This document shows, piece after piece, positions 3,621 through 31,788 of a stretch of 64,000 nucleotides of DNA. This DNA comes from a virus. The DNA lies in the IMG/VR virus record IMGVR_UViG_3300001336_000002, positions 37,744-101,743 of that record; one strand, 5' to 3'. The notes under the pieces were generated by a model, which was not told the origin of the DNA, searched no databases, and worked only from the letters and a program-made list of their open reading frames with translations. The translations under genes and the position numbers were made by a program. Numbering within the stretch: position 1 is the stretch's first letter; every line of letters begins with the position of its first letter.

Positions 3621-3660
3621 GTATTTATTATATCAGAGTCCTTAGGCATTTCCTTAGGGA

Positions 3661-3813
3661 CTACCGCGCAGCGACGGCGGGAGCCTTGCGGAGACCTGTA
3701 AGATTGACAGAATCAATAAACTTGCCATCCTGATCACGGATAACCACACGCTCCTGAGTGCCATAGCGAGTGTTCCAGGTCTCAAGGTAAGTGTACTTAC
3801 GAACCTTAGCCAT
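3661..3813 (-). CDS. Small basic hypothetical protein (50 aa; not in ORF track)
   Basis: MAKVRKYTYLETWNTRYGTQERVVIRDQDGKF...; AAAGGAGAG SD. Confidence 0.6.
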   Translation of the reverse strand: MAKVRKYTYLETWNTRYGTQERVVIRDQDGKFIDSVNLTGLRKAPAVAAR

Positions 3814-3869
3814 ATTGCTCTCCTTTACTAGTAAGGGTTTTATCTATCTGAATATTCATTCAGAAATCT

Positions 3870-4322: not shown

Positions 4323-4323
4323 T

Positions 4324-4713: not shown

Positions 4714-4823
4714 TTTATTCCTCCAACGCTAGATAATAGTCTGAATACTCTTTGTCATGTACCGCAAAGTCTATACCTAGTTCCTTGCACAGGTCAAGAC
4801 TTTCTTGAAAGTTTTCCTGGCCC

Positions 4824-7061: not shown

Positions 7062-7220
7062 AACTGCATCCTATATCATGGGTCTGACATTGACAAGAAA
7101 AAATATCCACGGGTTTTTCAAGGCGTTCGTAAGGGTCTTCGTAAAAGAGATTATTTTGTTTTATATGAAAATGCGACCGGCCCCGAAAGTCGTTGCAGCA
7201 CAAGCACTTTCATCAGTAGG

Positions 7221-7293
7221 CGCACCTGATGGGATTTGAACCCACGACCTCTACCGTGACAGGGTAGCGAGCACTCCGCTGCTCCACAAGTGC
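7221..7293 (-). tRNA. tRNA-Asp(GTC)
   Basis: GCACTTG/CAGGTGC acceptor, CTACC-CTGTCAC-GGTAG anticodon arm, GGTTCAAATCC T-arm; CCA not encoded. Confidence 0.92.
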
Positions 7294-7433
7294 GTGCAGG
7301 CAGTTTATCCATACATGCCCAGGTATGTGAGGTCAGGTCCGAAGTACGATCACCCAATCCCCCAGCGCTAGGGGATGATGGGCAGTTTTACATCATGCCC
7401 AGGATGTTAGGGTACTATGACATGTCATCCATG

Positions 7434-8414
7434 TCAGGCAAAGGCGACAGCCTTGACAGCCTTTAGCAGACGATTCTTCTCTGCATTGGTAGCAGCATCG
7501 AAACCGCTAGCAGCAGCGAGGACACCTTCTGCATTACCCCCGCGAGGGTTGCGGAACCAGTCCAGGCGCTCCGTCAGAGTGTTGTACGCACCCCACGCAG
7601 TACCCTTGATGTTGCCAACGGTGTCACCCTGGTAGATGTCAAACAGGGTATCGACCTTGTTTGTCCACTTGGTGACACTACCCTTGACATCCTTGTCAGG
7701 CTCAGGGTAGACAGCCTTGATGATATCGAAGAAGGTATCAGTCGTGATCTCCTTTTCGATCAAGGTCTGCGCCTCCTTCTCAAACTCATCCAGGTAAGCA
7801 TTGGCAAGGCCAAGAGCCTCACGCGCAGCCTGCACCTTGCCAGTAACCGTGGAGGTGTGACGAATCTTGTAGGACTGCTTCACACCATGCAGCGCATAGT
7901 TCAGAGTGTTCTGGCACACAACGCGCACAGGGGTAACGGATGCCTGCACAGCAAGCGAACCATCATGCGAGGTGTGAACCAGCAGATAGGTGTTCACCTT
8001 ATCGGTAGCACCGCTGGGGTCAAGGACTACCTCGCGGTCAAGGGCAAGGGAGCCAAAGACAACCGTGCCATTCTTGATGCTGCCAGCGGTCTCCCAACGG
8101 CCACCGTCAAGCATATTGTCAGCAAACGAGAACAGATCCTCGTTCTGCAGAACCTTGTAACGCTCACCCACAACGCCAAGGACATCGCGGTCACCGTCAA
8201 ACGGATTCTTGCGAGTGACAGCAAAATAGTTCTTGTGTGACCGACCAGGCAGATCAACGTCATCAAGACGAACATTCCAGCCAGCCAGATGAGCGACCTG
8301 AAGCATTTCCGATGTGCTAACCTCGTGGTCAAGGATGGTGCCAAGACCATGCCAAGCGGGTTCGCGCAGGGAAGCGAAGGAAGCCATATCTCCGTACTGC
8401 TCTAGCATGTGCAT
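7434..8414 (-). CDS. DUF932 (phage/plasmid-like TIGR03299) family protein
   Basis: PAWHGLG, Y.VLQN, WETAGS, SHDGS..TPVRVVCQNTL, IRHT and GTAWGAYN motifs. Confidence 0.9.
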   Translation of the reverse strand: MHMLEQYGDMASFASLREPAWHGLGTILDHEVSTSEMLQVAHLAGWNVRLDDVDLPGRSHKNYFAVTRKNPFDGDRDVLGVVGERYKVLQNEDLFSFADNMLDGGRWETAGSIKNGTVVFGSLALDREVVLDPSGATDKVNTYLLVHTSHDGSLAVQASVTPVRVVCQNTLNYALHGVKQSYKIRHTSTVTGKVQAAREALGLANAYLDEFEKEAQTLIEKEITTDTFFDIIKAVYPEPDKDVKGSVTKWTNKVDTLFDIYQGDTVGNIKGTAWGAYNTLTERLDWFRNPRGGNAEGVLAAASGFDAATNAEKNRLLKAVKAVAFA

Positions 8415-8582
8415 ATCATTTCCAATCTGTAGTAACTGATGATGTCATCATCCTATCAAGATGGTCTGACATTGGCAAGAAGAAAACGCAGATTTTCAAA
8501 ATATTTTTTGCAGGGGGTTTGTAACGGGTTCGTAACGATGATCGTAAAAGACTTGACAAAATTAGAATTTCGGGCCGGTCGC

Positions 8583-9222
8583 AAAAAGGTGTCCCCCAGG
8601 GGAGCGGCGGTGGGTGGGGGAGCGCTCAACCCTGAGGGACGTTTAGGGGAGCAGTTTGTCATCATGCTCAGGATGCCATATATGGTTATCAAACCTAGTG
8701 ATTCAGATATTTATTCTATAGAGGGTCAGGGGCTACCTGATTTCAACTATAGACGACTCAACCTGAATGCTATTGTTTGACAGTTTGGGAAGAATAGACG
8801 GACTCCTTTGCGGTTTACCCGCCGCTGATCAGACTTTGGGTAGCGCCCAAGGCGTGTTCTATTCTTCCTAGCCACCTTTAGGGAATCGAACCCTATATTA
8901 CCCAACCAGGGAAGGCAGAGTGCATTACTTTCTAGAATGTTCATGCACCAAGTTTAGGAAGGAGCATTATCTGCATTGCTTTTGCTCCTAAATTCCCAGG
9001 CGACTCCTGATATAGTTGTATAACGTATTAGCAGACCTGGGTGGGGAAGTGAGTCGATGTGGGGGTAGTTATCACAACTACCTGCCTCTTTCCATCTAGT
9101 CTAAAGAAGCGGATCTATTTTATGGGTGCCTGGGCTAATCCGACCCCTACATCCCTCCGCGACTAGATGAGTCCTATTCGGCCCCACGGGTCACATATCC
9201 CCAAGCCACTATTTATTTATGT
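8583..9222 (-). ncRNA. Putative ~640-nt multi-domain structured non-coding RNA or ncRNA cluster
   Basis: Extended -10 TGTTACAAT at 9227-9235, continuous nested stems, tRNA-like minidomain, pseudoknots, GC hairpin plus U-tract at 8583-8640; no credible ORF. Confidence 0.6.
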
Positions 9223-9238
9223 GATTATTGTAACATAT

Positions 9239-10554
9239 TTACTGAGAGGTTGTCCAACGATCTCCACTAGGAGTTGTAAGACGGATTCGATATGTACCCT
9301 GCGGATTGGGCACGATCTCCTGGATGGTGCCTGTCACACCTGACTTTGCAGTAGTGAAGGTCTCTCCGATAGCCAACATATTACTTACCCACAATCTGAA
9401 TAGGAATGGACTTGGTTTGGTTGGTCGCTCCATTAAAGTGACCCTTTTCGTTGCGAACAACGGCCTTTACAGCGTCGCCCCACTTCTCAGTACGAACAAT
9501 GATCTTTGACATTACCCACTCTTTCTGTCGTTGTTGTTGATATTAGTTTACAGTTCTGGCCAGGGATTGTCAAGGGTTTCTCTAAAATCTTCTGCAGTTG
9601 CGTCTATGACACCCTCTTCTATCCACATCCCTACCCCCACCATACCTTGAATAGCGGAGGCACCTATAGAATAGGATATATCATCCAATGTACCAATGTC
9701 AACCATTTCTTTTAAGTCTTGGACTGCTACTGCCACGGCAAGTTTGATATGAGAAACAATATCTTCCCCATTGACATAGCAAATATTGTCAATCATTTTG
9801 TATTCTACATCTGTTTTATCAAACGTATTCATTGACTATAATCCTTAGTTCTGATCTTCCAGAGGCTTTCAGCACCTTGCCGTTGCCCTCCTCATCGACC
9901 AGGGTAAGGATATGCAAGTCATCACCCTCATCTGCATAGTCTGTGCCTACAACATGATAGATGTCGTCTTTGATTAGAATCATGTCCCCTGGCTCAATTG
10001 AATAGACTTGCATTAATTCAGTAGTCATTGTCTTCTCCATTATATTAGAGTTTATAACCAGCCAAAGAGCACAACACCCAAGGCCATGATGAGCGGTAGA
10101 ATGATAATGGCAGTAAATAAAATCCCAATAATAGTCTCAATAGAATTGGGACGAGGTGGCTCATCCATTTAGTGCTCCTTGGGCATCATCGACTACCTTG
10201 GCATGAACAGACATCTCATTATGGATAATCATCAGGGTAGATGCAAGGATTTCATCATCTGTAATGTTGTAAGCATTCTCTATATAATACAGAGCCATCG
10301 CCAGATGGCTGTATGATGCTTTTAGGTTTAGTTGGACAGAGACATCTCTTTCACTCATTTAGATACTCCATCCACGATTGCAGGGCGGTAGTGAAATCAA
10401 GTTGACTAGGATTATTCTTCTCCCACCCAAAAGTAAATACATCTACCTCGCCACCTTCTCCAAACACGTTGGCAGTATGGCTACCCTTTGTCCATCGAAC
10501 GACGACGGTAGGCAGATAAGCAACCATTTCATTTTCTCTAGAAAGAATCATCAT
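9239..10554 (-). CDS. Operon of small hypothetical proteins (9239-9379, 9381-9512, 9548-9832, 9819-10040, 10161-10358, 10351-10554)
   Basis: Coupled ORFs downstream of the promoter at 10562-10583. Confidence 0.6.
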
Positions 10555-10702
10555 GTGTTACACACTAGCATATGGGACTGACATTGACAACTTTTTTACG
10601 AATTTTTTCACGACTTCGTAAGGGCTGTTCGTAAGAGCGTTATGTCTGATTGTTTGATGGCCCGGCCCGAAAAACCGTTGCAGGACAACGGCTTTCGAGG
10701 TT

Positions 10703-10927
10703 CTATGCAATAGCCCCCAAAGTCATTGCAAATGAACGCCTTTCAGCACCTGTCATGCCACCATAGACATGCGGCTCAAAGTCCTCATTTTCGATAGCGA
10801 ACATGAGGCAGTCGTCAATCACGGGACACGATTCACAAATCTCTTTAGCCTGCATGACGCGAGATGTCACTCCCGTCAGGAACAATGCGCTGTCTGCATC
10901 CTTGCACGCTGCCCTATCCTGCCACAT
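10703..10927 (-). CDS. whiB: WhiB-family Fe-S transcription factor
   Basis: WQDRAAC...F...AKEICESCPV..DCL.FA...HVYGG.T..ER (4 Cys plus G[V]WGG-like turn). Confidence 0.92.
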   Translation of the reverse strand: MWQDRAACKDADSALFLTGVTSRVMQAKEICESCPVIDDCLMFAIENEDFEPHVYGGMTGAERRSFAMTLGAIA

Positions 10928-11457
10928 TTGCAATCTCCTTTTTCCACTCGCGCTTCTCGCGCTTCTTGATGATCTTTCGTTCCATCCTAGCATCGGGGTA
11001 TGACATGCAGCACCCCCAGTAGCAACGCATTCCGTGCTTGCCGATATTGCGGCGGGTACGAATCATTCAGCCTCCGTCCATCGAACACCGTCAACGATAA
11101 TATCTTCATCTAGATACATGACGCGAGAATAGTCGAACGCGTTATCTGGCATCATGTGGTAAATGTCGATCCATGCTTTTTCTAGTTCGATGCTTAGATC
11201 CATTCGACTAGATCTCCATCCATGATCTCGTTTACGTCAAGGCCATTGGCCTCTGCAATGGCTTCCCACAGTTCTTCTTCCGTGAACCGTCCGTCCTCTG
11301 GCAGGTAGTCGATGTATGACATGTCAGTGCTCCTGTTCATCTACTTGATCGGTTATGTCGTTATAGAGGGATGTGATGATGTATCCCTGATTCATTAGTT
11401 CGCGCAGGCATTCCAATACCTGATCCCAGTCTGCGCGTGGCATCTCTACGGTTACCA

Positions 11458-12082
11458 TCACACACCTCCAAAAAATAGGTTGGTCATATTGTAGTTGTCG
11501 ATTCTGATCCCCTTGTGGAACGTGATATCGACGCTCGCACCATTGAGCATATCTTCATATTCATCGGGGTCGATCTCATCGACATTGCACAGATATACCT
11601 TGTCGCTGAGAGGGATCACGGTGCCCGTTCCCTCGTGGTAGATAAATAGATTCTTCATGGTTTCACCTTACACTAGGGGTCTGACACTCAGGCCCAGGGG
11701 TCATCATCGGGGGTCGGGAATCGACGGGAGGACAAGGCTTGAGCCATGACAGAATATTCCTCAAGTCCAGAACGCATGATCTCATCACAGGATGAGCAGA
11801 TTAGGTGGAACCGCTCGCACGGTCCCTGGCATAGGAGGCAGTTTGTCTTCATGATATTTCCTTTCAGCAGAATGGGCAGGGAGTCTTGATGGAATCGACA
11901 ATCTGGACACTACCAGCCTCGTTCACCCAACGAGGGCCAACGCGACCAAACTCATCCTTCAGATAGATCGAATAGCGGAACATGGCGAAGGAAGGCTTAT
12001 GGATACGCACAACCTCACCCTTCGTTCCATCGGACATGCGGACCAGATCGCCCACCTTGATATCTTTCACAGAGACCTTCAT
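11458..12082 (-). CDS. Small hypothetical proteins (11458-11658; 11864-12082 SH3/KOW-like)
   Basis: Each lies directly behind a TGTCAG promoter; the 72-aa ORF has an IKVGDLV..GEVV pattern. Confidence 0.55.
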
Positions 12083-12659
12083 GATCTCTCCTTTCTGCTA
12101 TGTCTCTATTCTTGCATAGGGGTCTGACATTCACAAATCGAGAATGTGTATAAAACGGACATTTTAGATCACAGAATGATAACAGAATAGAGAGACATTT
12201 TTCGAATGCGTGTTCGATTCTAAAAAGTTGTTGGTAGACAAGGGGTTTTCAGCGTGTTCTTAAAGTGATCGTAAAAGTTGTTGTGGCACAACAGGTTTGC
12301 GGCCCGGCCCGCCCCGCTCAAAACCGTTGCAGCACAACGGCTTTCATCGATTCATTATCACAAGGGCAGACCACAAAACAATCATGACGACAAAATATCC
12401 AGCAATAGCAACGGGTTTCGGTCGGTATGGTGAAACTAATAGCATGGCAAATATCACCATTTGAAAAAATATAGCAATGGCAATCACCTAGTCTCCCAAT
12501 CGAAATCGACGTTGAAGTCCTTTAGCATACCACTAGCGTCGCCTAGATATCCAGAAAGATATGCTAGTGCTTGATCGGAATTGGGGAATGTCTTTTGGAA
12601 TGATCTTTCACCATAGCCAACGTCGATGGTGAAAGTGACTGTGGGAGTAGGGTGTTTCA

Positions 12660-13217
12660 TCATGCCGCCGACCCCCTAACGATGATCCAGATGAGCGCCT
12701 GAGCGGTGCGAGGGGTGATGCCAAACTGTGAAGCAACGGAGGTGATAGCCTCAGACAACAGACGATATTGTGTCTTGTTAGGCGAGTCGGTGTCCATGCC
12801 AGCAGCACGCATCATCCAAACGTCGATGACGACAGCATCGGTGTCACCAGCGATAGCGCGAGCGAAGGCGTTGGTCTTGAGACCCTTCAGGGCTGAAAAC
12901 CCTTGCGAGACAGCGGCTTCCGCCATGCGAAGATTATTAGACAGGCCGCTAACTGGCTTGCCATTGGCGAACGCATATGCCTTAGCGACATTGGATGCCC
13001 AACGCTCACGAGGGGAGAAGGCAGACACGATGGACGCGCCATGCTCTAGGCTCACACCTAGAATCTCAGCAACGTCTTCCGCAACCTCTTGCGCTTCCAG
13101 ATACCAAGTCGAAGCGGCTTCCATCTGGGCGAGGGTAGCGGTCATGATAAGGCTCTCAAAACGAGCGGCGGCTGATGCGAACACGGAGGTGCCCTCTGGG
13201 GCGGTAACTGTAATCAT
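12660..13217 (-). CDS. Phage protein with DNA-glycosylase-like fold (DUF7178-like)
   Basis: WY..A, SAFSP..W..N, G.KT.AF, VVIDVWM and QA.IW pattern; leaderless. Confidence 0.55.
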   Translation of the reverse strand: MITVTAPEGTSVFASAAARFESLIMTATLAQMEAASTWYLEAQEVAEDVAEILGVSLEHGASIVSAFSPRERWASNVAKAYAFANGKPVSGLSNNLRMAEAAVSQGFSALKGLKTNAFARAIAGDTDAVVIDVWMMRAAGMDTDSPNKTQYRLLSEAITSVASQFGITPRTAQALIWIIVRGSAA

Positions 13218-13409
13218 GGAATGATCCTATCAAAGGGGTCTGACATTCTGAGGGTATATGGAGGATTATTCGGTAACGAAACGGTCACGATGCTTGGACT
13301 TACGGTTATACCTGGCCTTATTCCTATGGGGCTGGGCAGCATTAGAACGACGACGGTCCATGATGGCTCGCTGATGACTATTAGACCTGCGTGACTTATT
13401 CATGGCATG

Positions 13410-13438
13410 ATCCTATCATATTTAGATAATCATGTCAA
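13410..13438 (-). promoter_or_regulatory. Canonical sigmaA promoter TTGACA-N17-TAGGAT, leaderless
   Basis: ATG at 13403 lies 6 nt after the -10. Confidence 0.7.
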
Positions 13439-13540
13439 ATGAAAAAAGTTGTTGTGTCTCAAGGGTTTCTAGCGATTCAGGGAAATATCGTAACCTCGTA
13501 AACCGTTGCAGCACAAGGGAAATCGCGCCCGGCCCTCTTT

Positions 13541-14705
13541 TCAGGATTTGTCAAGTATCTCCTGTATGTCGTTACGAACCTGCAACAACTGTTCGATCAT
13601 GCGTTCGACACGCTTGTATTCATCAGGGTTGTCTGTCGCATAGTACGCACGATCCAGGGGGTCTAGAGTGAGATAGATATCATTGCTAGCCTTCTTTAGG
13701 TTAGACAAGAATGCGTCATGACGCGAGATGGTCTTCATTAGTCCTCCTGATATTCATCGAAGTCTAGGGGCTCATAGTCAGCACACCAACCGCAGATAGT
13801 ATCGGTGCTATCTGCCCAATCCCAGAACACCTCATCACATGAGGCGCAAACAACTGCTTCCAGGTTGATCTCATATGTATCGTTCATGGATTCACCTTAT
13901 CATGATAGTCTGACATTCATCAATGAAAAATAAAAATGCTTTTTATTACATGATCGTAACGAGTGTTCGTAAGGGCTTGACAAGTGCAAAGATTTGGGCC
14001 GGGCCTGAAAACCGTTGCAGCGCAACGACTTTCGGCTACATGGTTTCGATGTGTCCCACCAAGCCCATGAGCATGGCGAAGGCGAAAACACCTAGTGTCA
14101 CAAGGACTTTCTCCATCACAATGCCTCCACAAAGTCGTTGCCGTGCAACACCTTTTTGATGACGGGAAGGTGGTCATCACACACGAGGGTAGACACATGC
14201 TTTCCATTGTACTCAGACACCTGAGTCACCTTGTGGGTAGCACGAGCACGGCTCACGCGGTTATCGCAGAATACATGCTGGCAGACGGGCGAACCGTCGC
14301 GGGTATAGTTAGGCCAACCCATGATGATCACTCACTCTCATTACTGTAGAACACTTGCTGTTGGACACGGATATAGTTGTTGATTGCTTGCTGGATCTTG
14401 TTCATGGTATCACCTTATCATGGGGGTCTGACATTGTGGCCTAGGGCTCATCCCCTTGCGGGGCTTATTTGCCTAGGAAGATTTAGTTATTAGGCGAACA
14501 CCCTAGCCCTATGGCAGTCAGCGCAGATGATGGTGTCATTCACGATGGACAGGTCAGCGGTGTTATTCGTTCCGCAGGTCCAGCAAGCCCACGGCTCGCG
14601 GCGGATCTGTCGGTCATAGTATTCTGTGATGCCCCAGAACACAACGGTGAACACAGCGGGGATTCCGATGAAGATAGCGATTGCCATCAGGATACCTTCG
14701 AACAT
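13541..14705 (-). CDS. Small hypothetical proteins, several with CxxC Zn-finger-like motifs (13541-13738, 14116-14331, 14490-14705)
   Basis: ORF track and promoter positions. Confidence 0.5.
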
Positions 14706-15350
14706 TTGTCTAGCCTTTCTTCTTGTGTTGCTTCGATACTATCACAGGGGTCTGACATTGGACGAGAGGTTAGACCAACTCCTCGTCCACGAACCGAATA
14801 ATCTCAGTGTCGAACGGCTGTTCGATTGCAAATGCTTCGGCGGCTTCACGAGTATCGAACCGTGCAACGGTACGCCCCATGACACGAGCCACGCTATAGC
14901 CTGTACGGGTAATCCACATATCTGTCACCTCCTTTGCTTTCATACCTGAAGACTATCAGATTGGTCTGACATTGACAAATTTGAAAAGGTGCAAATCGGA
15001 CATTTTAGATAACAGAAATGTAACGAAATTTTTCGCTCAGGTGTTCGATTATTTTGATCAAAAATTCTACGCTGAGGTTCGATCAAAACCGTTGCGCTGC
15101 AACGACTTTTGTCGTATAGCAAGGCTGAAAAGTTGTTGTGCTGCAACGATTTTTGCTGTGGCTGAGTGCGCTCTATCTTATTCGAATTTTTGTTCGATTT
15201 TGCGTACCGTACACACTTACAAAATATTAAACTTTAGTTCAAATCCAATTCTGATAAAATTTTAAGAATTAAAAATATGGGCACACAAAAAATTTTTAAA
15301 CTTTCTATAAATCGAATATATCAACTCATCATGCGTAGTATCATATATAC

Positions 15351-15545
15351 ATGAAACCTGTAAAACCGTGGGACCTATTAAATAAAGACAATTGGACAGT
15401 AGAAGAACTACGAAAAAAAAGACTAGAAATATGTCGGGAATGTCCAGAATATAACAATTTCACAAAACAGTGTTCACAATGCAAGTGTTTTATGCCTGCT
15501 AAGACATGGCTAGAAAATGCTTTTTGTCCATTACGCAAATGGTAA
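15351..15545 (+). CDS. Small Cys-rich protein (DUF6171-like)
   Basis: R..IC..C....C..C.CF..AK......CP..KW. Confidence 0.65.
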   Translation: MKPVKPWDLLNKDNWTVEELRKKRLEICRECPEYNNFTKQCSQCKCFMPAKTWLENAFCPLRKW

Positions 15546-21191: not shown

Positions 21192-23804
21192 ATGGCTACG
21201 CTTATACAAATTAGAAGAGATACCCAGACAAATTGGACAACAAATGATCCAATATTAGCATCTGGTGAAATTGCCTTTTCTACCGATCAATATAAAATTA
21301 AAATAGGTGATGGAACTTCTAATTGGTCTGCCCTCGCTTATATGACTGCAACACCCACAGAAATTACAAATCAAATTAATGCAGCAGTAGCAGGAATTAT
21401 TGACGCAGCCCCCGCAGCCCTAGACACTTTAAATGAACTAGCAGCCGCGCTTAACGATGATCCAAATTTCTTTACTACAGTTGCCAACAATCTCTCTAAT
21501 CACGAATTGGATTCCACCAATGTTCACGGCATTGAAAATACGGCAGATCTAGCAACAAAGAACTACGCCGACACTGCTGTGTCAACGCATAATAGCGACA
21601 CTACAAGCGTTCACGGAATATCAAATACCGCCAATCTTGTTTATACAGATGATTCAAGGCTCTCTGACGCAAGAACTCCAACATCTCATAACCACACAAC
21701 ATCTGAAATTACTAATTTTACAGAAGACGTAGAAGATGTTGTAGGTGGTATGGTATCAAACAATACGGAGTCTGGGATTTCCGTTACATATGACGATGAA
21801 GCAGGAAAACTAAACTTTAATGTAAACGATCCAACCATTACTCTTTCTGGGGATGTTTCTGGCTCTGCTACGATGACTGATTTAGGAAACGTAACCATTA
21901 CTGCCACCGTCGCAGATGATAGTCATAATCACATTATTGAAAATGTAGATGGGCTACAAAACGCGCTTGATACCAAGTTAGACTCAGCATCCTACACCGC
22001 TTCAGACGTTTTAACAAAAATTAAAACTGTAGATGGATCTACTAGTGGACTAGACTCCGACTTGCTTGACGGACAGGAAGGATCTCACTACCTAGACTGG
22101 ACAAACACCACAAACAAACCAGACCCTGTAATAACTCTGGCAGGAGATTTAAGTGGATCAGTAACACTTACAGACTTAGAAAGTGGAACTCTTACAGCCA
22201 CTATAGTTGCAGATTCGGTTGCTCTAGGAACAGATACCACGGGTAATTATGTGGCAACCGTAGCAGGAACAGATGGAGTTTCTGTATCTGGATCAGGGTC
22301 TGAAACCGCTGACGTTACAATAGCAAACACCGATAAAGGATCTTCACAAAATATATTTAAAAATGTTGCAGTATCTGGTCAATCTGATATAGTTGCAGAC
22401 TCCAACAATGATACTCTTACTGTTTCGGGTGGAACAGGCATATCTTTAACAACAAATGCAACAACCGATACCCTTACCGTTACAAACTCTGGAGTAACCT
22501 CTCTAACAGGAACGTCCAACCAGATATCAGTTTCTGATTCTACTGGATCAGTAACCCTTTCTACTCCACAGAACATTGATTCTTCTGCAAGTCCAACATT
22601 TGCTGGTGCCACTCTTGACTCAATAAAGGTCGGTATGACAAATGCTAACGAAATTGATACAACATCAGGAAATCTTATTTTGGATTCCGCTGGAGGAACT
22701 GTAGAAATAGATGACAACCTGATTGTTTCAGGAGATTTTACAGTTAATGGATCTACCACCACGATCAATGCAACCACCATTACAGTAGATGATAAAAATA
22801 TTGAACTTGGATCTGTAGATAACCCAACTGACACTGCCGCAAATGGCGGAGGAATTACTCTTAAAGGAACAACAGACAAAACATTTAATTGGTCTGATGC
22901 TACAGATTCCTGGACTTCATCAGAGCATATTGACCTAGTTAGTGGAAAAGTATTAAAAATTAATGGATCTCAGGTTCTTTCTGCAACAGAATTTGTTGGA
23001 AATTCGGCAACCGTTACTGATGGCGTTGTTACTACTGGTTCATATTCTGATCCCTCCTGGATTACAGGTCTGTCATGGAGTAAAATTTCTTCTACTCCAA
23101 CAACTCTTTCTGGGTATGGCATTAGTGATGCACAGCCCCTGGACACCGAACTAACGGCTCTTTCTGGACTAACGTCTGAAGCAGACGCGCTACCTTATTT
23201 CACGGGAGCGGGAACAGCAGCAATAACAATGTTCACCTCCTTCGGCAGATCATTAGTAGACGATGTAGATGCTGCTACTGCAAGATCAACAATGGGTATT
23301 GGAAATGTAGAGAATGTCGCACTGTCAACATGGGCGGGAAGTACAAGCGTCACTACTCTAGGGACAATAGTTACTGGAACATGGAACGGATCAGTTATTG
23401 GAGATTCATACATAGATTCTGGAATTGCAAGACTTGCTTCACCATCATTTACTGGATCTATTACATTAGATTCAAAGGCAAATGTAGATACAACAAGTAC
23501 AACTATTTCTGCAACTACCGCCACAACTATCGATACTCTAAGTGCTTCTTCATACAGAAGCGCAGAGTATTTGGTACAAGTAACACAAGATACAAAGCAA
23601 ACAGTATCAAAAATTATCATGATTCATGATGGAACTACCGCCAATATTTCAGAATACGGTGTCATTGAATTAGGAGGAACGAGAATTCCTCTTACACTCT
23701 CTGCCACCATTTCTGGAACAGACGTACTTCTGCAAGCAACTATTACAGATGCCGATACTACAAATGCGACGGTAGAAGTAGTTAGAACAGCAATTGTGCT
23801 ATAA
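21192..23804 (+). CDS. Long tail fibre with Mtd-N-like anchoring domain
   Basis: IQIRRDT..NW...PILA.GE...KIGDG; DTLNELAAAL; fibre repeats. Confidence 0.75.
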   Translation: MATLIQIRRDTQTNWTTNDPILASGEIAFSTDQYKIKIGDGTSNWSALAYMTATPTEITNQINAAVAGIIDAAPAALDTLNELAAALNDDPNFFTTVANNLSNHELDSTNVHGIENTADLATKNYADTAVSTHNSDTTSVHGISNTANLVYTDDSRLSDARTPTSHNHTTSEITNFTEDVEDVVGGMVSNNTESGISVTYDDEAGKLNFNVNDPTITLSGDVSGSATMTDLGNVTITATVADDSHNHIIENVDGLQNALDTKLDSASYTASDVLTKIKTVDGSTSGLDSDLLDGQEGSHYLDWTNTTNKPDPVITLAGDLSGSVTLTDLESGTLTATIVADSVALGTDTTGNYVATVAGTDGVSVSGSGSETADVTIANTDKGSSQNIFKNVAVSGQSDIVADSNNDTLTVSGGTGISLTTNATTDTLTVTNSGVTSLTGTSNQISVSDSTGSVTLSTPQNIDSSASPTFAGATLDSIKVGMTNANEIDTTSGNLILDSAGGTVEIDDNLIVSGDFTVNGSTTTINATTITVDDKNIELGSVDNPTDTAANGGGITLKGTTDKTFNWSDATDSWTSSEHIDLVSGKVLKINGSQVLSATEFVGNSATVTDGVVTTGSYSDPSWITGLSWSKISSTPTTLSGYGISDAQPLDTELTALSGLTSEADALPYFTGAGTAAITMFTSFGRSLVDDVDAATARSTMGIGNVENVALSTWAGSTSVTTLGTIVTGTWNGSVIGDSYIDSGIARLASPSFTGSITLDSKANVDTTSTTISATTATTIDTLSASSYRSAEYLVQVTQDTKQTVSKIIMIHDGTTANISEYGVIELGGTRIPLTLSATISGTDVLLQATITDADTTNATVEVVRTAIVL

Positions 23805-23838
23805 TAAAAATAAATAAACAAAGGGGATAGTGAACCTT

Positions 23839-24396
23839 ATGGCAGATAAGAACTTCAAAGTAAAGAATGGTCTAGAAGTGGGAGACCATGATATTGTTAC
23901 TCCTGATGGAACAATAACTCTTCCTAATGGAACCCATACTCTTGTACCTTCCGACTCTCCTACTCTTACGGGAACTGTAGGCCTTCCTTCAACAACCTCT
24001 ATCGGAAATGTTTCAGACACCGAAATTGGATATTTAGATGGCGTTACGTCTGCTATTCAAACACAGTTAGACTCTAAAGCAGGTTCTTTAGTATCCATAA
24101 ATACTCAAACTGGAACGTCTTATACATTAGCACTATCAGATTCTAATAAATTAGTAGAAATGAATAATGCTGCTGCGAATACTTTAATTATTCCACTCAA
24201 TTCTAGTGTTGCTTTTCCCATTGGAACTAAGATTGATTTTATTCAAACTGGAGCAGGAGAAACATCTGCATCTCCAACATCTGGTGTTACCTTGAATTCA
24301 GATACTGATAAACGTACAATTAATGCACAATGGGCAGCGGCATCATTGATCAAGCGTGGAACAGATACCTGGGCACTTATTGGAGCATTAAAGTAA
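23839..24396 (+). CDS. Tail fibre adaptor protein
   Basis: C-terminal YTL..SD...FPIGT.I..Q.GAG...W.L.G.L domain shared with 28044 and 28957. Confidence 0.6.
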   Translation: MADKNFKVKNGLEVGDHDIVTPDGTITLPNGTHTLVPSDSPTLTGTVGLPSTTSIGNVSDTEIGYLDGVTSAIQTQLDSKAGSLVSINTQTGTSYTLALSDSNKLVEMNNAAANTLIIPLNSSVAFPIGTKIDFIQTGAGETSASPTSGVTLNSDTDKRTINAQWAAASLIKRGTDTWALIGALK

Positions 24397-25415
24397 TGAG
24401 TTTGTGGTTGGGTATATTGTCCGGTCAAATTTCTTCTACTGCTTTGCAAGAAAATATTGCGGTATCGCACCAACTCAGTCCCTTCATCACCGTCTATCCT
24501 TGGAGTTCAGGCTTTGGCACCAAGTATGCCGATCCTGCTATATTGCCTTCCTCCGCTGGTTTCTCCACAGCATTTTCACCATCAGGCAATGATCTTGCGG
24601 TAGCGCACGACCTCGGTCCCTACATCACCGTCTATCCTTGGAGTTCAGGCTTTGGCACCAAGTATGCCGATCCTGCTATATTGCCTGGTTATTACGGTTT
24701 CTCCACAGCATTTTCACCATCAGGCAATGATCTTGCGGTAGCGCACGACTTCTCTCCCCGCATCTCCGTCTATCCTTGGAGTTCAGGCTTTGGCACCAAG
24801 TATGCCGATCCTGCTATATTGCCTTCCTACACTGGTCTCTCCACAGCATTTTCACCATCAGGCAATGATCTTGCGGTAGGGCACCGATTCAGTCCCTACA
24901 TCTCCGTCTATGCTTGGAGTTCAGGCTTTGGCACCAAGTATGCCAATCCTGCTATATTGCCTTCCTACACTGGTCTCTCCACAGCATTTTCACCATCAGG
25001 CAATGATCTTGCGGTAGCGCACGGATTCAGTCCCTACATCACCGTCTATCCTTGGAATGCAGGCTTTGGCACCAAGTATGCCGATCCTGCTATATTGCCT
25101 TTCTACACTGGTCTCTCCACAGCATTTTCACCATCAGGCAATGATCTTGCGGTAGCGCACGAATACGCTCCCAACATCACCGTCTATCCTTGGAATGCAG
25201 GCTTTGGCACCAAGTATGCCAATCCTGCTATATTGCCGACGGGTTACGGTTTCTCCACAGCATTTTCACCATCAGGCAATGATCTTGCGGTAGCGCACCG
25301 ACTCTCTCCCCACATCACCGTCTATCCTTGGAGTTCAGGCTTTGGCACCAAGTATGCCAATCCTGCTATATTGCCTGCTTCTTACGGTTTCTCCACAGCA
25401 TTTTCACCTAACTAG
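24396..25415 (+). CDS. Seven-bladed WD40-like beta-propeller, putative receptor-binding protein
   Basis: Seven 46-aa repeats (AFSPSGNDLAVAH...YPW); TAATG-coupled to the adaptor gene. Confidence 0.75.
   Translation: MSLWLGILSGQISSTALQENIAVSHQLSPFITVYPWSSGFGTKYADPAILPSSAGFSTAFSPSGNDLAVAHDLGPYITVYPWSSGFGTKYADPAILPGYYGFSTAFSPSGNDLAVAHDFSPRISVYPWSSGFGTKYADPAILPSYTGLSTAFSPSGNDLAVGHRFSPYISVYAWSSGFGTKYANPAILPSYTGLSTAFSPSGNDLAVAHGFSPYITVYPWNAGFGTKYADPAILPFYTGLSTAFSPSGNDLAVAHEYAPNITVYPWNAGFGTKYANPAILPTGYGFSTAFSPSGNDLAVAHRLSPHITVYPWSSGFGTKYANPAILPASYGFSTAFSPN
24457..25408 (+). repeat. Seven tandem 138-bp near-identical repeats
   Basis: Units start at 24457, 24595, 24733, 24871, 25009, 25147 and 25285. 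Confidence 0.95.
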
Positions 25416-25429
25416 AAGAAAGATCAATA

Positions 25430-26260
25430 ATGAAAAAAATCTATTATATGTCAGGGCTTCCAAGATCTGGAAGCACATTAATTTCATCTATATTAAATCA
25501 AAATACAAATATTTATGCATCAAGCAATTCTTCTATTGTTCCATTAGCCGCGATAGTTGAGGCTAGCATTCTTGCATCAGAGTCATACAATGCTCACCCC
25601 CGACCAAAAGTTATCAAAAAAACGGTGTCTGGAGTAATAGAAAACTTCTACTCAGATAGAAAAGAAGAATACATCATAGACAAATCACGATTAGTCACTA
25701 TTCCCGAGCATTTTAGATGTATCCAGCGGAACTTTGACTATAAACCAAAGGTTATTATCCCTGTACGGAATGTGACAGATGTACTAGCGTCATTCTTAAA
25801 ATTAGTGTATAAGACTCCATCAGATCAAGATAACTTTATTGATAAAGATATAGCAACATTAAACGACATTAATCTATATCTGTCAAAAGATGATACTCGT
25901 GTAGAGCATCTTATGAAACCAAAAGGAATGATAGATAATCAACTATATGGCATAGCATTTATGCTCCAGCCAGAATTTAGAAAGTATGCACATTTTATTG
26001 AATATGATAGTTTAATGTCAGATACGCGGGGGGAGATAGAAAAACTCTACTCCTTCCTTGAAATAGAACCATTTGAGCATAACTATGACAACATTAAGAA
26101 TGTTACTCCAGAAAATGATAAGGTATACGGTGTAGTCAATATGCATACAGTAAGAAAAACTATTTCACCCAGCACCACCAACGCCAAAGCAATTTTGTCT
26201 GAATATGCCTATAATAAATACAGTAATTTAGAATTTTGGCGGCAAGCATTAGGATACTAA
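25430..26260 (+). CDS. Sulfotransferase family protein
   Basis: GLPRSGSTL PAPS-binding loop; DKSR; R...DVLAS. Confidence 0.8.
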   Translation: MKKIYYMSGLPRSGSTLISSILNQNTNIYASSNSSIVPLAAIVEASILASESYNAHPRPKVIKKTVSGVIENFYSDRKEEYIIDKSRLVTIPEHFRCIQRNFDYKPKVIIPVRNVTDVLASFLKLVYKTPSDQDNFIDKDIATLNDINLYLSKDDTRVEHLMKPKGMIDNQLYGIAFMLQPEFRKYAHFIEYDSLMSDTRGEIEKLYSFLEIEPFEHNYDNIKNVTPENDKVYGVVNMHTVRKTISPSTTNAKAILSEYAYNKYSNLEFWRQALGY

Positions 26261-26290: not shown

Positions 26291-26605
26291 ATGAGTGAAC
26301 AACCAGTAGAGCCAACTAAAACCCCCTTCGAATTACGACAGGAAGAAGTTTCCCAATATCAGGCCAACATTGATCTTTATACAGCAGTAGTTGCAGGACT
26401 ACCATCAGAATGGCCCGATCATTTAGTTCAATATAAAGGTCGAACAGACAAACATGCGGCCATTGCTGAAATTGATGATCTTGAAGACGTAGTTCTTGTA
26501 AGCGATCTTTGGACACATGATCAGGCAGTTGCTGCAATTCGGTCGGAAACATTAGAAATGCGTAAAGCACAGTCTATTCTTAATGCTCTTATCGCACAGC
26601 AATAA
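26291..26605 (+). CDS. Hypothetical protein
   Basis: TGATATAAT promoter and GGAGG SD. Confidence 0.6.
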   Translation: MSEQPVEPTKTPFELRQEEVSQYQANIDLYTAVVAGLPSEWPDHLVQYKGRTDKHAAIAEIDDLEDVVLVSDLWTHDQAVAAIRSETLEMRKAQSILNALIAQQ

Positions 26606-27085: not shown

Positions 27086-30000
27086 ATGGCTTTTCCAGCG
27101 ACATACAATATCTCCTATTATCAAGGCGATGTTTATGACTTTATCATTAGACCAAAAACTTCTTTAGGAGAAATATTTCCAGTGTCTGCTGCCATATATG
27201 ATGCCTATCTGAGAATAGACGATGAAAGAGGCGGGGAAGACGGAACGGCAATATCTCAAATAAATGTTTCTATATCCGACAACTCTCTTATATGCTCAAT
27301 CCCTCCATCTGAGGGAAACAAGTTATCTTCTGGAACAATATACTATTACGATGTGTCAATAGAAAATAAGACTGATCCGAATATCGTATACACCTTGCTT
27401 ACTGGAACTATAACAGTAACTGACGATATTGCTACGGGGTCATAATGGCAGAAGTTGATGTACTATTAAATACAGACGACCTTCTTGTTTTAGGTCCACC
27501 AAATAACATCGACTTGTCTGTTTCTGTAGGACAACAAGGTGTAAGAGGGGCTAAATTTTTTGCGGGTCCAGGGAATCCAAATGATGCTTCAATATCTCAA
27601 GACTTATTTGGAGAAACCGTGTCTCCTGTAGAAGGAGACATATTTATAAATTATTCCTCTGGATCACAATATGGCTGGCTATATATTTACAATCCCAAGG
27701 GAACAGGAATAGATGATTGGGATGAAGTTCTTATTCTTCAGCCCCCAATATATGTAAAGCAAATGGAAGCGGTGTTCTCTGCAGGGGTTTCTTCTGTATC
27801 AATACCTTTAACAAGCATACTCCCTGTTGGAGTATCAGAATCAAATACAGACAACTATATCGTTAATGTTACCCCTAACAACGCCTCTCCAATATCTATA
27901 TCAATTTCTTCTAAGTCAATTGTTTCTGGAGCACTAAAAATAGATTTTTCGGGGGCAAAGTGTGATACGTCAACCTATTCTTGGTCGGCACTAAATGAAA
28001 CAGTTGATTTAAATATAAGCGTTTACGTCTCTCAGGAGTAACTATGTCTCCATACCAAATAGGAATCAACCATCCAACACTATCTCCTTCATTTGAAGAT
28101 GATGCACAAATAGAAGAGGCATTTTATTTATATCATTATGGGGTAGAAGGGTGGGATGAGGAAAATCCAACAACAATTCCCTTAAATAGCATTGAGGGAA
28201 GGTTGTCAGATTTTGATCAAAGAATAACTTCTGTTGACTCACAGGTGTCTGCTTCTGCTCCATATTTAAAAAAGTCCCCTGGGGAAAATGAAAATATCAT
28301 TGTTCCAACTGATCCAGGAATTACCCCCCTATACATCTCTTCAATATTTGCTAATTTTCAAGAATGGCAAAATAGTTCTCTATCTCCAAGAGCAATAATT
28401 TCAGGGGATAACAATGGATATCTAGCGCTGGTAGGATACTTCTCTATTGTTGCGCCATCATCATCCTCTATTGCACAAAATATTGAAATATTAGATGTCA
28501 CACATTTAGGAATTGTCGTTAAATCTGCCGCGTCTCAAACGGCAAACCTTCAAGAATGGCAGAATGTTAATGGTCTTGTAAAGTCATATGTTGATCCTTA
28601 TGGCAAGGTTGGACAAAGCAAAACAATCATACAAAGAAACTCATCTTTTACTTTAAACAATAACTCATTTAAGAAAAAATTATTTATAATAAATTCTTCT
28701 TCTAATGTTGTTGTTACTATTCCAGACGACTCTACATTTAGCAACAGCATAGGTACAGAAATAGATTTTTTAAGATATGGATCAGGAGAGGTTTCGTTTT
28801 TGGCTCAGGGCTCGGCTGCAATACTTTCTGAATCAAATAAAAACTCTATTGCAGCACAATATACTGCTGCCAAAATAATAAAAACAGATGCAAACACATG
28901 GAATCTTTATGGGGGAATAAAAACATTATGATAATATATTTTTTAGAGGATAAAAAATGCCACAAGAAATAGGACAGTCTTTTAAAAGCGTAATCCCCAC
29001 ATTGGCAGACGACTCTTCAATCGAAGAAGCCTTCTACATGTATCATTATGGAAATGCCTTTTGGACAACAGGCCAGCCAATTCCATCAAACAGTATAGAG
29101 GGAATTCTTTCATCGTTAGAAGCAAGAATAACAGATAATGAAAACTCCATACAAAATTTAAGCAATACCTATATTGCTACATCTCCTTCATCCACTGATC
29201 AAAATATAATTCAGGCGACTAGCGCATTGTACGTTCCTTTAACAGTTAGAGGCGCATCAGGTCAAACAGCAAACTTGCAAGAATGGGTGGTAGATACAGG
29301 AAGTAGTCTAATAACAAAAGCAAGAATTTCTGCTAATGGATCATTTTCAACACTAGGATACCTATCTATTGGCTCTATAAACATAAGTAGTTCTGTTGCG
29401 AATAGGATACAAATTGCCTCCCCAACCCACAGAGGTATTGTAATAAGGTCTGCATCATCTCAATCAGCGAACCTTCAAGAATGGCAAGATAACAGCGGAA
29501 ACATTTTACTTTCAGTAGACCAAGGTGGGTCTTTTGTTTATAATGTTCCAGTTGAGGATGCATATTTTATTTCTGTAAATCAGCCACCCACCCCTGAATA
29601 TTTGCTATTAACAGTATCAGAAAGCAGCACGGGTAAAACATTTATTTTAAACGAGTCGTCAAGTCGTAATGCAGTAATATCAATAAATACCAATAGTACG
29701 TCTACAGATTCAATAGGCACTCAAATATCTTTTATAAATTTTAGAGACTCAGAGGTAGAATTTCAGCCAAGTGGATCAACAATTCTTAGATCAGAAAATA
29801 ATTATAGAAAAATTGACGGAAAATATTCTGCAGCAACTTTAATAAAGGTATCGTCAAATGAATGGGTACTTTTAGGAGCACTAAAGTCATGATTTTAGGT
29901 GTTTCAGAAAGCCAGGACGGATATTTTGTTACTACTGGAGCAAATTATGAATATGTGCAGGCAAACCACCAACTAAATTATGGATATTGCATATTTACTG

Positions 30001-31788
30001 CATCTGGAAGTTTAACTGTTTTAAGAAAAAGACCTATACCAAACTGCTCTATTTTAGTTGTAGGAGGAGGAGGGTCTGGTGGAACCAATGGAAACTCTGC
30101 ATCAGGCGGCGGCGGAGGTGCTGGAGGAAGTGTTGTTCTAGTTAACAATGTAACCCTTTCTCCAAAAACTACTTACACAGTAACTGTAGGATCTGGTGGA
30201 GCACAAAGCACATCAGCAGGGAATAAAGGGGGAAGTAGTTCATGGAACTCACAGTATAATGCAGAGGGCGGCAATGGGGGAGGGGCTGGATATATAACTG
30301 GACCATATGCATATCAGCAAATTGCTGGTAATGGTGGAAACAGAACAAATGGAGGGGGCAGCGGAGGAAGAGGTGGTGTATACGCTCCAGGAAACATATA
30401 CTTTCCTAGTCCAGGAATAAATGGAGGATTTGGTCAACAAGGATCACGACATGAAACAATGACATATCCAGCAAATGGAGAAATAATAGTCGGAGAGATA
30501 ACAGTTCCAGAATATATTGGAATAGACAAGCCAGTAGAAAGAATAGTTGGCTATTTTGGAACAGGCGGCGGCGGCGGTGAGTTTCAGAATAGATGGGATG
30601 GTGGCATAGGATATGCAGGCGGCACAACACCGTGGTTTGTTGATCCAAGATATTACTTAGGATATAGCGGCCCATATTATGGTTCTGGAAGAGGCAAACT
30701 TCTTTCTACTCCAGAAGGTGATTCTTCATACAACAATTATTTTGTTTACAGCAATACCGCTTGGAGGAGTTTTTTTGGTGTTCCTGAAGCCAGAATTTTC
30801 GTAGGAGGAAACGGTGGCGGGGGCGCTTCTGGAGCGTATACTGCATCTACTTCTTCAACCGCAGGTCAAAATGGAATAGTAATTCTAAGATATAGGATAT
30901 AGTATAGTTATGTCTAATTTTGCAAAAATAGAAAATAGTTTTGTGATAGAAATTTTAGTTGTCCCAGATGAATTTTCTGACTTTGGAGAAAAATACCTGT
31001 CAGAGCACTTAGGGCTAGGAGGAAAATGGATTGAGACTCCAAGAAAAAATAATACGTCTGCTATTCTAGGAGGAGAATATTCTGAAATAGAAGATTCTTT
31101 CATTCCTCCAAAGCCGCAGGGCAGTGGGTGGATATTAAACGAAGAATATCAATGGATTAAAGAAAATTCTGTTATAAATGTTGATTCATTTATTCCTCCT
31201 CCTCCACTACCAGCACCCAAATAACCCGAATGGTATAATCTTATTATGGCTTCTGGCTCTACAACCAACTATGAATTTCCCTATCCAGTACTAACAGACC
31301 CAGTTAATTTTACGGGGGACATGGAGGGGCTTGCAGTATCTATAGATTCAAGACTGATAAATCTTGTCACTGGAACTGGCCAGGTTCCTGCAACTGCAAA
31401 CCAGGAAGACAAATACCTTTATTCAGACGGAACTAATGCGGTATGGAGATCAATCGCTTCTTCTTATTTAGAGTCAGTAATTGTTTCTGTTGACACAATA
31501 CAAACTCTAGACTCCTTTGATGTTGCCACATATAGAAGTGCTGAATATATTATTCAGGCAGATCAGGCAGATGTATCAAAAAAGACATTAATGAAGGTTT
31601 TAATTATTCACGATGACTCTACAGTATACTTAACAACCTTTGGCATAATTGAAGTTGGGGCATCAAGAATCCCTCTAGAGATTTCTGGAACTATTAGTGG
31701 CACAAATGTTTTGCTTCAAGCGCAAGTATCAGATGCTTCAACAAATAATGTTGAGTTTGAAATAGTTAGAACAATCTTATCTGTTTAG
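27086..31788 (+). CDS. Minor tail/fibre gene cluster (27086-27445, 27445-28041, paralogues 28044-28931 and 28957-29892, Gly-rich 29889-30902, 30910-31224, 31246-31788)
   Basis: Coupled ORFs; QTANLQEWQ repeats; VGGGGSGG...G.VILRY Gly-rich domain; YRSAEY domain shared with the C-terminus of 21192. Confidence 0.65.

Follow-up and report, generated by a model that had tools for sequence, protein, structure and literature searches.

How can a gene keep seven repeated blades of a protein almost identical in DNA, even at silent codon positions, and at the same time hold different residues in two short loops of each blade? The question is raised by a propeller gene (24396-25415, plus strand) in a stretch of viral DNA of 64,000 nucleotides, which represents positions 37,744 to 101,743 of the IMG/VR virus record IMGVR_UViG_3300001336_000002. 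The whole stretch is referred to below as the window, and coordinates given without a locus name are counted from its first letter. The open reading frame (ORF) encodes 339 amino acids (aa) plus a stop and is read here as a seven-bladed WD40-like beta-propeller. The explanation considered the most probable, if well short of certain, is recombination between the blades (concerted evolution), combined with selection that favors different loops on what is likely a host-binding face. Such an array would probably serve fast-changing host recognition.

Seven Uniform Blades and Two Variable Loops

Nearly all of the propeller ORF is occupied by a tandem array of 138-bp (46-codon) units (24457-25408, plus strand), reported by Tandem Repeats Finder as one array with a period of 138, 6.9 copies, 90% matches, no indels, and a score of 1449. 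In the codon register, the units start at 24456, 24594, 24732, 24870, 25008, 25146, and 25284. When eight loop codons are masked (codons 6, 7, 8, 10, 32, 33, and 34 plus codon 36), the remaining framework is 96.4% identical between units over all positions and 99.1% identical at third codon positions; identity in the eight masked codons is 55%. Altogether, 32 of the 138 nucleotide columns vary across the seven units, and the longest exact repeat inside the array comprises 72 bases. The repeat pattern is real and far from chance, and the seven near-identical 138-bp units named in the original prediction, which had been made from the DNA letters alone, were recovered.

The changes cluster in two short segments of each unit, as was also predicted. 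Variable loop 1 (unit codons 6-10, His-xxx-Pro-x, delimited in the codon table) lies on the plus strand at 24471-24485 in blade 1 and at 24609-24623, 24747-24761, 24885-24899, 25023-25037, 25161-25175, and 25299-25313 in blades 2-7. Variable loop 2 (unit codons 32-36, LeuPro-xxx-Gly-Phe/Leu, delimited likewise) is found on the same strand at 24549-24563 in blade 1 and at 24687-24701, 24825-24839, 24963-24977, 25101-25115, 25239-25253, and 25377-25391 in blades 2-7. The residue strings listed earlier proved exact: after His, the successive blades read QLS-F, DLG-Y, DFS-R, RFS-Y, GFS-Y, EYA-N, and RLS-H and, after LP, SSA, GYY, SYT, SYT, FYT, TGY, and ASY. With codons 6, 7, 8, 10, 32, 33, and 34 taken as loop codons, 18 of their 21 columns are variable vs. 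14 of the 117 columns elsewhere (Fisher p 2.7e-11). The residues at the seven most variable codons (n = 49) include 11 Tyr, 10 Ser, and 5 Phe.

There are about 23 silent framework sites per unit and 2 changes at them altogether: CCT>CCG (unit 6, codon 31) and CCA>CCT (unit 7, codon 42, at the very end of the gene), i.e., one more silent change in residue-unchanged codons than had been claimed. Further synonymous differences reside within the variable codons (Ser AGT/TCT, Ser TCC/TCT, and Tyr TAT/TAC). The suggestion that variable codons keep their third base holds for codons 7 (NNC), 8 (NNT), and 10 (NNC) of loop 1 but fails for loop 2, in which none of the three third bases is fixed. Counted as minority letters at third positions, the variation amounts to 9/21 in loop 2, 2/28 in loop 1, and 1/261 in the framework. 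Since the third positions of loop 2 are scrambled to this extent in comparison with the framework, loop 2 appears to be older than its surroundings or to have been replaced as short patches. Either possibility points to short-tract recombination levelling the framework and selection keeping the loops different.

Outside the loops, unit codon 26 (e.g., 24531-24533, after ‘GFGTKYA’) looks like a balanced two-state position: over 222 blades of the family it encodes Asn in 113, Asp in 106, and Ser in 3, and Asp and Asn alternate inside single proteins.

The gene is also distinguished by its base composition. Its third codon positions are rich in C, as had been noticed: the fraction of C at these positions (C3) is 0.33 and that of G plus C (GC3) is 0.465, vs. 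0.10-0.18 and 0.20-0.29, respectively, in the neighboring genes, and the GC content of the whole gene is 0.497 vs. about 0.39. The codon bias represents just 46 independent codons copied seven times; for the consensus unit, C3 is 0.348 (binomial p 7e-4 against 0.15). Expression or foreign origin may account for the GC content and the C-ending codons.

Fold of the Protein and Position of the Variable Loops

The AlphaFold2 model of the propeller, built on an alignment of 39 family members (pLDDT, the predicted local distance difference test, 94.6; pTM, the predicted template modeling score, 0.90), displays seven repeats, each consisting of three strands and one bridge; model confidence is low for the first 18 residues. 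Within a unit, the predicted strands correspond to GFSTAF, DLAVAH, and ITVYPW, with the bridge at GFG. The top Foldseek hits of the model are seven-bladed WD40 proteins. The best of them is 7bid, a seven-bladed WD40 designer protein (E 4.5e-18), and the other best matches are designer WRAP-T proteins, the WD40 domain of Thermomonospora PkwA, and 2ymu (‘highly repetitive propeller’). The sequence profile of the family likewise matches 2ymu, a ‘WD-40 repeat protein’ (E 1.7e-20), and the WRAP-T designs (E 7e-12 to 5.5e-9). The profile match to 2ymu together with the Foldseek placement therefore identifies the protein as a divergent WD40-type seven-bladed propeller with a 46-residue unit. The Pfam WD40 model (PF00400) does not match the protein, and no Pfam family scores above the cut-off for it (the best, DUF4883 and FGGY_C, are below the cut-off); some relatives have precomputed PF00400 hits. 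The only match among the PHROGs is phrog_19311, a family of unknown function (E 3.2e-15).

In the profile alignment, the family segment ‘AFSPsGndIAVAH’ sits on the WD40 segment ‘AFSPDGQTIASAS’. Loop 1 is aligned with the WD40 B-C turn ‘DDK’ and is located in the model between the strands ‘LAVAH’ and ‘ITVYPW’; loop 2 is aligned with the WD40 stretch which follows ‘GH’ and leads into strand A. By the strand order in the model, loop 1 connects strands 2 and 3, and loop 2 connects strand 4 to the next blade; hence, both loops are expected on the same side of the up-down sheet. The structure prediction proposed as a check of the original idea thus puts both variable loops on one face, judging from strand order and the WD40 alignment. 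In WD40 propellers, this side corresponds to the top face, which binds ligands.

The blades are preceded by 15-20 residues at the N-terminus (24396-24455 in the window gene), in which a hydrophobic motif, M.ILGIIAS..., is common to several relatives. This N-terminus is a candidate docking peptide for the fibre.

Probable Levelling of the Framework and Reshuffling of the Loops

The history of the blades was approached by comparing 19 distinct genes of the family with a uniform 46-residue spacing, the loops being masked. In 9 of the 19, each of the seven blades has its nearest relative within the same gene as itself, and in 3 more six of the seven do. The window gene belongs to the nine, its framework identity within the gene being 0.964 vs. 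0.728 to the best foreign blade. Matching of blades by position is seen in those genes that have a close orthologue in the 19-gene set. The concerted evolution originally proposed is therefore borne out in the sense that all seven blades group within their gene both here and in eight other members. Across a larger set of 38 genes, the identity of framework third positions between blades ranges from 0.475 to 1.0 as a gapless continuum. Its top is formed by L182 (1.0) and the window gene (0.991), and the next value is 0.879.

The gene L182:2734-3690, located on a metagenome contig, represents a second, unrelated array of the same family, with 52% protein identity to that of the window. Its 22 variable columns, which include no third positions and no silent changes, belong to the same two loops and to a few other codons; the GC content of the gene equals that of the flanks (0.41).

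The units of the window gene are mosaic. The four-gamete test over the seven units is failed by 54 of the 78 informative column pairs, which bears out the repeat shuffling envisaged in the original prediction, and several pieces are common to neighboring units (‘YTGL’ in loop 2 of units 3-5, ‘FSPY’ in loop 1 of units 4-5, and ‘NA’ in units 5-6).

Across the family, the same loop positions are the most changeable ones: the entropy over the 222 blades is highest at unit positions 6, 36, 34, and 7. Between orthologues, the loops usually appear to change faster than the framework. Thus, in the pair L038/L067 the nucleotide difference is 0.565 in the loops and 0.219 in the framework, with 43 of 56 loop residues and 46 of 260 framework residues changed; the corresponding figures for L024/L035 are 0.536 and 0.188, with 40 of 56 and 35 of 260 residues changed, and the nucleotide differences for L127/L134 are 0.321 and 0.115. 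The genes L009 and L014 are separated by 2 base differences over 948 positions, both within loop codons. Contigs of the runs X3 and X4 contain a relative with about 90% similarity in the sulfotransferase gene which follows the propeller gene (see below), and these contigs begin inside the last blade; on the 391-base contig of X3, 12 of the 29 listed differences are in blade 7, 9 of these in codons 32-37 (nine further differences are unlisted, and no rate is derived from these figures). The positive selection which had been suggested is consistent with the faster change of the loops between orthologues, but residue selection alone fails to explain the scrambled third positions of loop 2.

Taken as the favored explanation, concerted evolution would operate as follows. 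The seven 138-bp units would keep exchanging sequence inside the gene by homologous recombination (unequal exchange and short gene conversion), which would make the framework uniform in all blades, silent sites included. Two same-face loops per blade would escape the levelling, variants with different loops being favored, so each blade may show its own Tyr/Ser/Phe-rich residues on a fixed scaffold. The exchange of units would also shuffle the loops into new combinations, and the identical framework, about 50-70 bases beside each loop, would supply the homology for it. Selection as the force keeping the loops different is inferred from this pattern.

Duplication Burst or Continuing Exchange?

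An alternative history would be a single recent burst of unit duplication, after which point mutations under strong positive selection drove the loops apart and the units no longer exchanged sequence. The array of L182 fits a stage of such a burst, as its 22 variable columns are mostly single-base steps, and the retention of the third base in codons 7, 8, and 10 of loop 1 of the window gene is what a burst would leave; moreover, highly repetitive WD40 proteins are seen as products of recent repeat duplication in the accessible part of Hu et al. 2017 (PMC5587647). Still, selection on residues does not predict the scrambled third positions of loop 2, and the failures of the four-gamete test likewise speak against a burst. 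Loop codons differ by up to three bases vs. the two silent changes in the framework, so a very large non-synonymous excess would be required. Furthermore, the continuum of identity over 38 genes and the grouping of blades by gene fit repeated levelling better. Overall, a burst without further exchange seems unlikely.

Several observations, at the same time, weigh against continuing exchange under selection for diverse loops. The nearest relative in the collections searched shares just 66% protein identity, and because there is no closer one the recent history of the array itself is untraceable; the exact 38-base framework pattern has no match in viral_contigs or metagenome_contigs. Two orthologous pairs display no loop excess: in L157/L164, the nucleotide difference is 0.036 in the loops and 0.044 in the framework, and in L016/L029 the values are 0.095 and 0.071. 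The higher GC content of the propeller gene could reflect recent acquisition instead of expression-linked codon choice. The placement of the loops on the same face follows from topology (strand order) and the WD40 alignment of a predicted structure, not from a measured surface map. Finally, the array comes from a short-read metagenome assembly, on which the order of the units and the pairing of loops within units depend. Independent k=31 contigs of the run X1 (the best-matching run, with 0.77 of the words, and possibly the source sample; the runs were compared as contigs) end at 24514 and restart at 25347. Assembler bubble-merging could have removed silent framework variants present in a single copy, and comparable fungal WD40 arrays are described as unreliable in Illumina assemblies in the accessible part of PMC11761791.

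The array might, alternatively, be an assembly artefact in part: the units would be real, but the short-read assembler, possibly by mixing strains, would have created the sequence in which they stand, the way in which loops 1 and 2 are paired, or the full uniformity of the framework. The break in the X1 contigs and the mis-assembly of the fungal arrays from Illumina data point in this direction, as does the size of the unit (138 bp), which is near the read length. The pieces of X1 listed between the breaks are 43-88 bases long; they are identical to the window. Overall, 13 of the 13 X1 pieces placed on the window are at least 99% identical to it and bring no other letters, and some of them (e.g., 24946-25023 and 25133-25220) span the junction of two units. 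At 72 bases, the longest exact repeat within the array is shorter than the usual read, and in principle the units could therefore be ordered with reads of 100-150 bases. The number of units equals that in all stand-alone relatives, and the protein folds in the model as a closed propeller. Besides that, arrays in other assemblies retain silent differences and form a continuum, and the array of L182, which comes from another assembly, is equally extreme. We consider an artefact of this kind improbable, somewhat more so than the duplication burst. The breakage of short-read assemblies by such arrays has one more consequence: virome catalogues probably list too few uniform-blade arrays and contain some of them in a mis-assembled form.

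The Propeller Family and Its Tail Context

Relatives of the propeller are encoded on 456 IMG/VR contigs, and metagenome relatives account for at least 572 of 609 matched stretches. In a collection of prokaryote genomes with one genome per species, 25 loci only were found, mostly on contigs of metagenome-assembled genomes from many phyla. The family is thus essentially a phage family. Most of its members are stand-alone proteins of 330-350 aa, and the stand-alone relatives all have seven blades by motif count; other members possess 12-14 blades or extra domains. Multiplied propellers take different forms: the locus L035 contains two propeller genes in tandem (4798-5817 and 6001-7017), a single protein of MW202701.1 carries 14 blades, and L001:7704-9848 belongs among these tandem or double-propeller relatives.

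The propeller gene of the window lies in a tail-fibre module, its start overlapping the stop of a fibre-like gene. This arrangement recurs: in the 17 loci examined, the propeller gene closely follows the preceding ORF, and the two often overlap by 1-4 bases. For 6 of the 17 relatives (L017, L056, L057, L059, L073, and L012), that preceding ORF matches a tail or tail-fibre PHROG. A tail-fibre-assembly gene (phrog_4912) is located downstream in 4 of the 17 (L026, L056, L073, and L012) and upstream in L020, and an endolysin gene follows the propeller region in L017 and L020. In L062, an N-terminal tail-fibre match (phrog_1833, E 3.8e-7) is fused to the propeller. A relative in BFVD is fused to a coagulation-factor 5/8 C-terminal domain, and some relatives are fused to fibronectin type III (PF00041) parts. 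A scan for tail domains over 18 longer relatives and two loci returned just two weak tail matches. Based entirely on the gene neighborhood, the propeller is most likely a host-binding tail part, i.e., an adhesin or a receptor-binding protein, which would be produced jointly with the short tail fibre of the preceding gene.

Conversely, the propeller could act inside the cell, e.g., by binding a host or defence protein in the manner of the WD40 sensors in NLR-like (nucleotide-binding, leucine-rich-repeat receptor-like) systems. Top faces of WD40 propellers commonly bind proteins, as stated in the accessible parts of Paoletti 2007 (PMC1805685) and Hu 2017 (PMC5587647). The location in the particle is deduced from the neighboring genes, and genes for a sulfotransferase and a single-stranded DNA-binding protein (SSB) are situated just downstream. 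Against such a role stand the position right after tail-fibre genes with an overlapping stop and start, which is kept in phages of different tail types, and the tail-fibre-assembly genes downstream in relatives. The fusions of some relatives to tail-fibre-like, fibronectin type III, or F5/8 type C parts also disagree with it, and no NTPase or effector partner is present. An intracellular role is judged to be about as improbable as the assembly artefact.

Genome of the Phage and Neighbors of the Propeller Gene

The virus record, which belongs to an uncultured phage, comprises 101,743 bp with direct terminal repeats and is 100% complete according to CheckV. It encodes a portal, a protease, a capsid protein, and a tape-measure protein of 1267 aa; the portal, capsid, and tape-measure genes therefore indicate a long-tailed phage, probably a non-contractile one. 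The sequencing runs with related sequence are labelled as aquatic and lake water metagenomes.

Four tail-fibre-like genes are located upstream of the propeller gene. The last of them (23830-24396, plus strand) encodes a short tail-fibre-like protein of 188 aa, and its stop overlaps the propeller start. The C-terminal part of this protein matches tail PHROGs: phrog_21510 (E 3.2e-22), phrog_8780 ‘minor tail protein’ (E 4.5e-20), and phrog_16053 ‘tail fiber protein’. The likeliest start of the propeller is the ATG at 24396, with the stop/start overlap TAATG and, nine bases before the ATG, a GGAG (24383-24386, plus strand), which is likely a ribosome-binding site. The coupling of the propeller to the gene before it is thus as predicted, but the label ‘tail adaptor’ for that gene lacks support, its matches being short tail-fibre-like PHROGs. 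This C-terminal domain, about 100 residues long (phrog_21510 / phrog_8780), is common to the plus-strand genes 23830-24396, 28044-28931, and 28957-29892, which suggests several alternative short fibres in one phage. A glycine-rich protein encoded at 29862-30902 (plus strand; PF21722 Gly_rich_2, E 8.8e-13, with tail-fibre PHROG matches) belongs to this second fibre cluster.

Downstream of the propeller gene lies the sulfotransferase gene (25430-26260, plus strand; PF00685, E 2.4e-12, above the cut-off; phrog_27463, E 1.8e-77), the relatives of which in IMG/VR are at most 38% identical. It is followed by a conserved small ORF of 104 aa with the motif YQxNIxxYT (26291-26605, plus strand), recognized by BLASTP against the small ORFs of the relatives. 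Its product matches the small ORF after the propeller in 10 of the 10 relatives tried, with E values from 7e-42 (58% identity, L057) to 7e-4; it has no Pfam or PHROG family. The usual cassette therefore appears to be a fibre gene, the propeller gene, and the small ORF, with the sulfotransferase gene sitting inside it in this phage. Because the small ORF directly follows the propeller gene in the 10 relatives examined, the sulfotransferase gene is probably an insertion into the cassette. The small ORF may encode an assembly factor or an adaptor for the propeller.

Elsewhere, the genome contains three glycosyltransferase-like genes, one methyltransferase gene, and one dehydrogenase gene. The region from about 2200 to 15500 has a GC content of 0.45-0.51 vs. 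about 0.39 and harbors only small, mostly minus-strand ORFs and a tRNA-Asp (7219-7293).

Retroelement or Recombination Enzymes?

One of the upstream genes (21192-23804, plus strand) encodes a tail-fibre protein of 870 aa which begins with an Mtd_N domain (PF18454, E 3e-15). Mtd_N is the N-terminal domain of the fibre of phage BPP-1, which is diversified by a diversity-generating retroelement (DGR). This neighbor, the resemblance of the NNC/NNT pattern of codons 7, 8, and 10 to DGR variable codons, and the identity of the framework at silent sites, as if the copies were written from one template, bring up a targeted mutator rewriting the loops, either a DGR acting in trans or another mechanism. 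However, no PF00078 match, i.e., no reverse transcriptase (RT), was found in the complete 101,743-bp genome by a search which gave matches above the cut-off in 3 of 14 control genomes, nor did PHROG scans, including those of 35 further ORFs, reveal one. The unit is matched in the genome by the seven units of the array only, without an eighth copy that could serve as a template. Seventeen columns carry adenine in each of the seven units, 14 of the 32 variable columns have none in any unit, and several framework variants are common to units in a mosaic fashion. The lack of both an RT and an extra copy of the unit in a complete genome therefore excludes a DGR as the diversifier of the loops, and the invariant adenine columns agree; a phage-borne DGR is largely refuted, in line with the argument against a classical DGR made at the outset. 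A targeted mutator of any kind is very improbable.

The genome does carry genes for recombination: a UvsX-like recombinase (phrog_97, E 1.9e-38), a Cas4-domain exonuclease, a RuvC-like resolvase, and two SSBs. Under recombination between the blades, these enzymes of the phage itself would act on the array. This might be taken further. It is possible, and proposed here tentatively, as more doubtful than the exchange between blades itself, that the family represents a widespread retroelement-free way to diversify phage host recognition. The identical frameworks would then be built-in homology arms, with the help of which the UvsX/Sak4-like recombinase, the Cas4-like exonuclease, and the RuvC-like resolvase swap loop cassettes between blades and between co-infecting genomes, and uniformity would be selected rather than a by-product of recent duplication.

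Significance and Comparison with Known Systems

The rapid change of host-recognition proteins in phages is commonly attributed to DGRs, swapping of fibre modules, or point mutation. Here, a mechanism of the fungal allorecognition type, uniform repeats with few hypervariable surface positions, appears in a compact protein of a phage tail module, and hundreds of members of its family occur in lake and marine viromes. Provided that the protein binds the host, the family would be a natural small scaffold with seven-fold modularity and with specificity residues readable from the sequence; it could then help the prediction of host range from metagenomes and the engineering of binders.

The closest parallel is provided by fungi. 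The WD40 repeats of the HNWD family of NOD-like receptors of Podospora anserina undergo concerted evolution and have four positively selected positions on the interaction surface, according to the accessible part of PMC1805685. Like HNWD and HET-D/HET-E, the phage array consists of WD40-type blades with a very high identity within the gene, which in the fungi is kept by concerted evolution. The making of new specificities by repeat reshuffling, an HNWD feature, is a further likeness (both points after the accessible parts of PMC1805685 and PMC11761791), as is the difficulty of assembling the arrays from short reads (PMC11761791, accessible part). Unlike HNWD, the phage protein is a stand-alone protein of 339 aa in a tail-fibre module with no NACHT/STAND NTPase joined to it; its unit has 46 residues, not 42, and its repeat number is fixed at 7 (14 in relatives), not polymorphic. 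The phage genome is also without a multi-gene family for repeat exchange, and repeat-induced point mutation (RIP) is not applicable to it.

In highly repetitive (HR) prokaryotic WD40 proteins, most sites are conserved between repeats, and the predicted hot-spot sites of the top face are diverse; these proteins are cellular, unlike the phage propeller, often multi-domain, and have 14 or more repeats, according to the accessible part of PMC5587647. In the accessible main text of the same paper (Hu et al. 2017), the word ‘phage’ does not occur (PMC5587647). A likeness to the HR proteins is the profile match of the family to 2ymu, a solved protein of Nostoc punctiforme. The phage propeller differs from them in missing the Pfam WD40 model, and in place of the GH and Ser of WD40 it carries LP and a blade-end His.

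With the targets of DGRs, which reportedly diversify phage receptor-binding proteins such as Mtd of BPP-1 and the tentaclins, the array shares a fixed scaffold with few hypervariable Tyr/Ser-rich positions and some codons keeping the third base. It differs from targets like BPP-1 Mtd by having no RT, template repeat, or adenine specificity and by variation spread over seven tandem units, not confined to one C-terminal region. Another beta-propeller of a siphophage host-recognition device is Gp45 of the Staphylococcus phage phi11, in which a propeller with a different number of blades, five, is said to form the ‘platform’ of the receptor-binding protein as part of a larger trimeric baseplate protein; we know of no report of DNA-uniform blades in it. 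Nozzle and tail-hub propellers and a predicted 3-bladed fibre protein described in preprints were considered as well and belong to a different family.

Within the family itself, the annotated protein UOF80687.1 (‘wD40 repeat protein’, Caudoviricetes sp. ctYwJ313, MW202701.1) has the same motifs and is 57.1% identical over 94% of the query. Its gene is located in a late-gene block, with a ‘tail assembly chaperone’ two genes downstream and then a holin. It differs in having 14 blades of 47 residues with DNA units about 75% alike, i.e., an ordinary divergence of blades.

No paper describing the pattern of uniform blades with variable loops in phage proteins was found in a literature search extending to sources other than subscription journals and closed supplements. 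As judged from the sequence and the model, the array appears to possess the features of the fungal high-internal-conservation (HIC) and bacterial HR arrays, namely blade identity within the gene above that to foreign blades and variation at a few positions on the putative interaction face. Thus, the pattern itself is known from fungal and bacterial WD40 proteins, and what differs here is its setting: a minimal propeller, standing alone, within the tail-fibre modules of phages, with a fixed number of seven blades, a non-Pfam unit of 46 residues, and a conserved small ORF.

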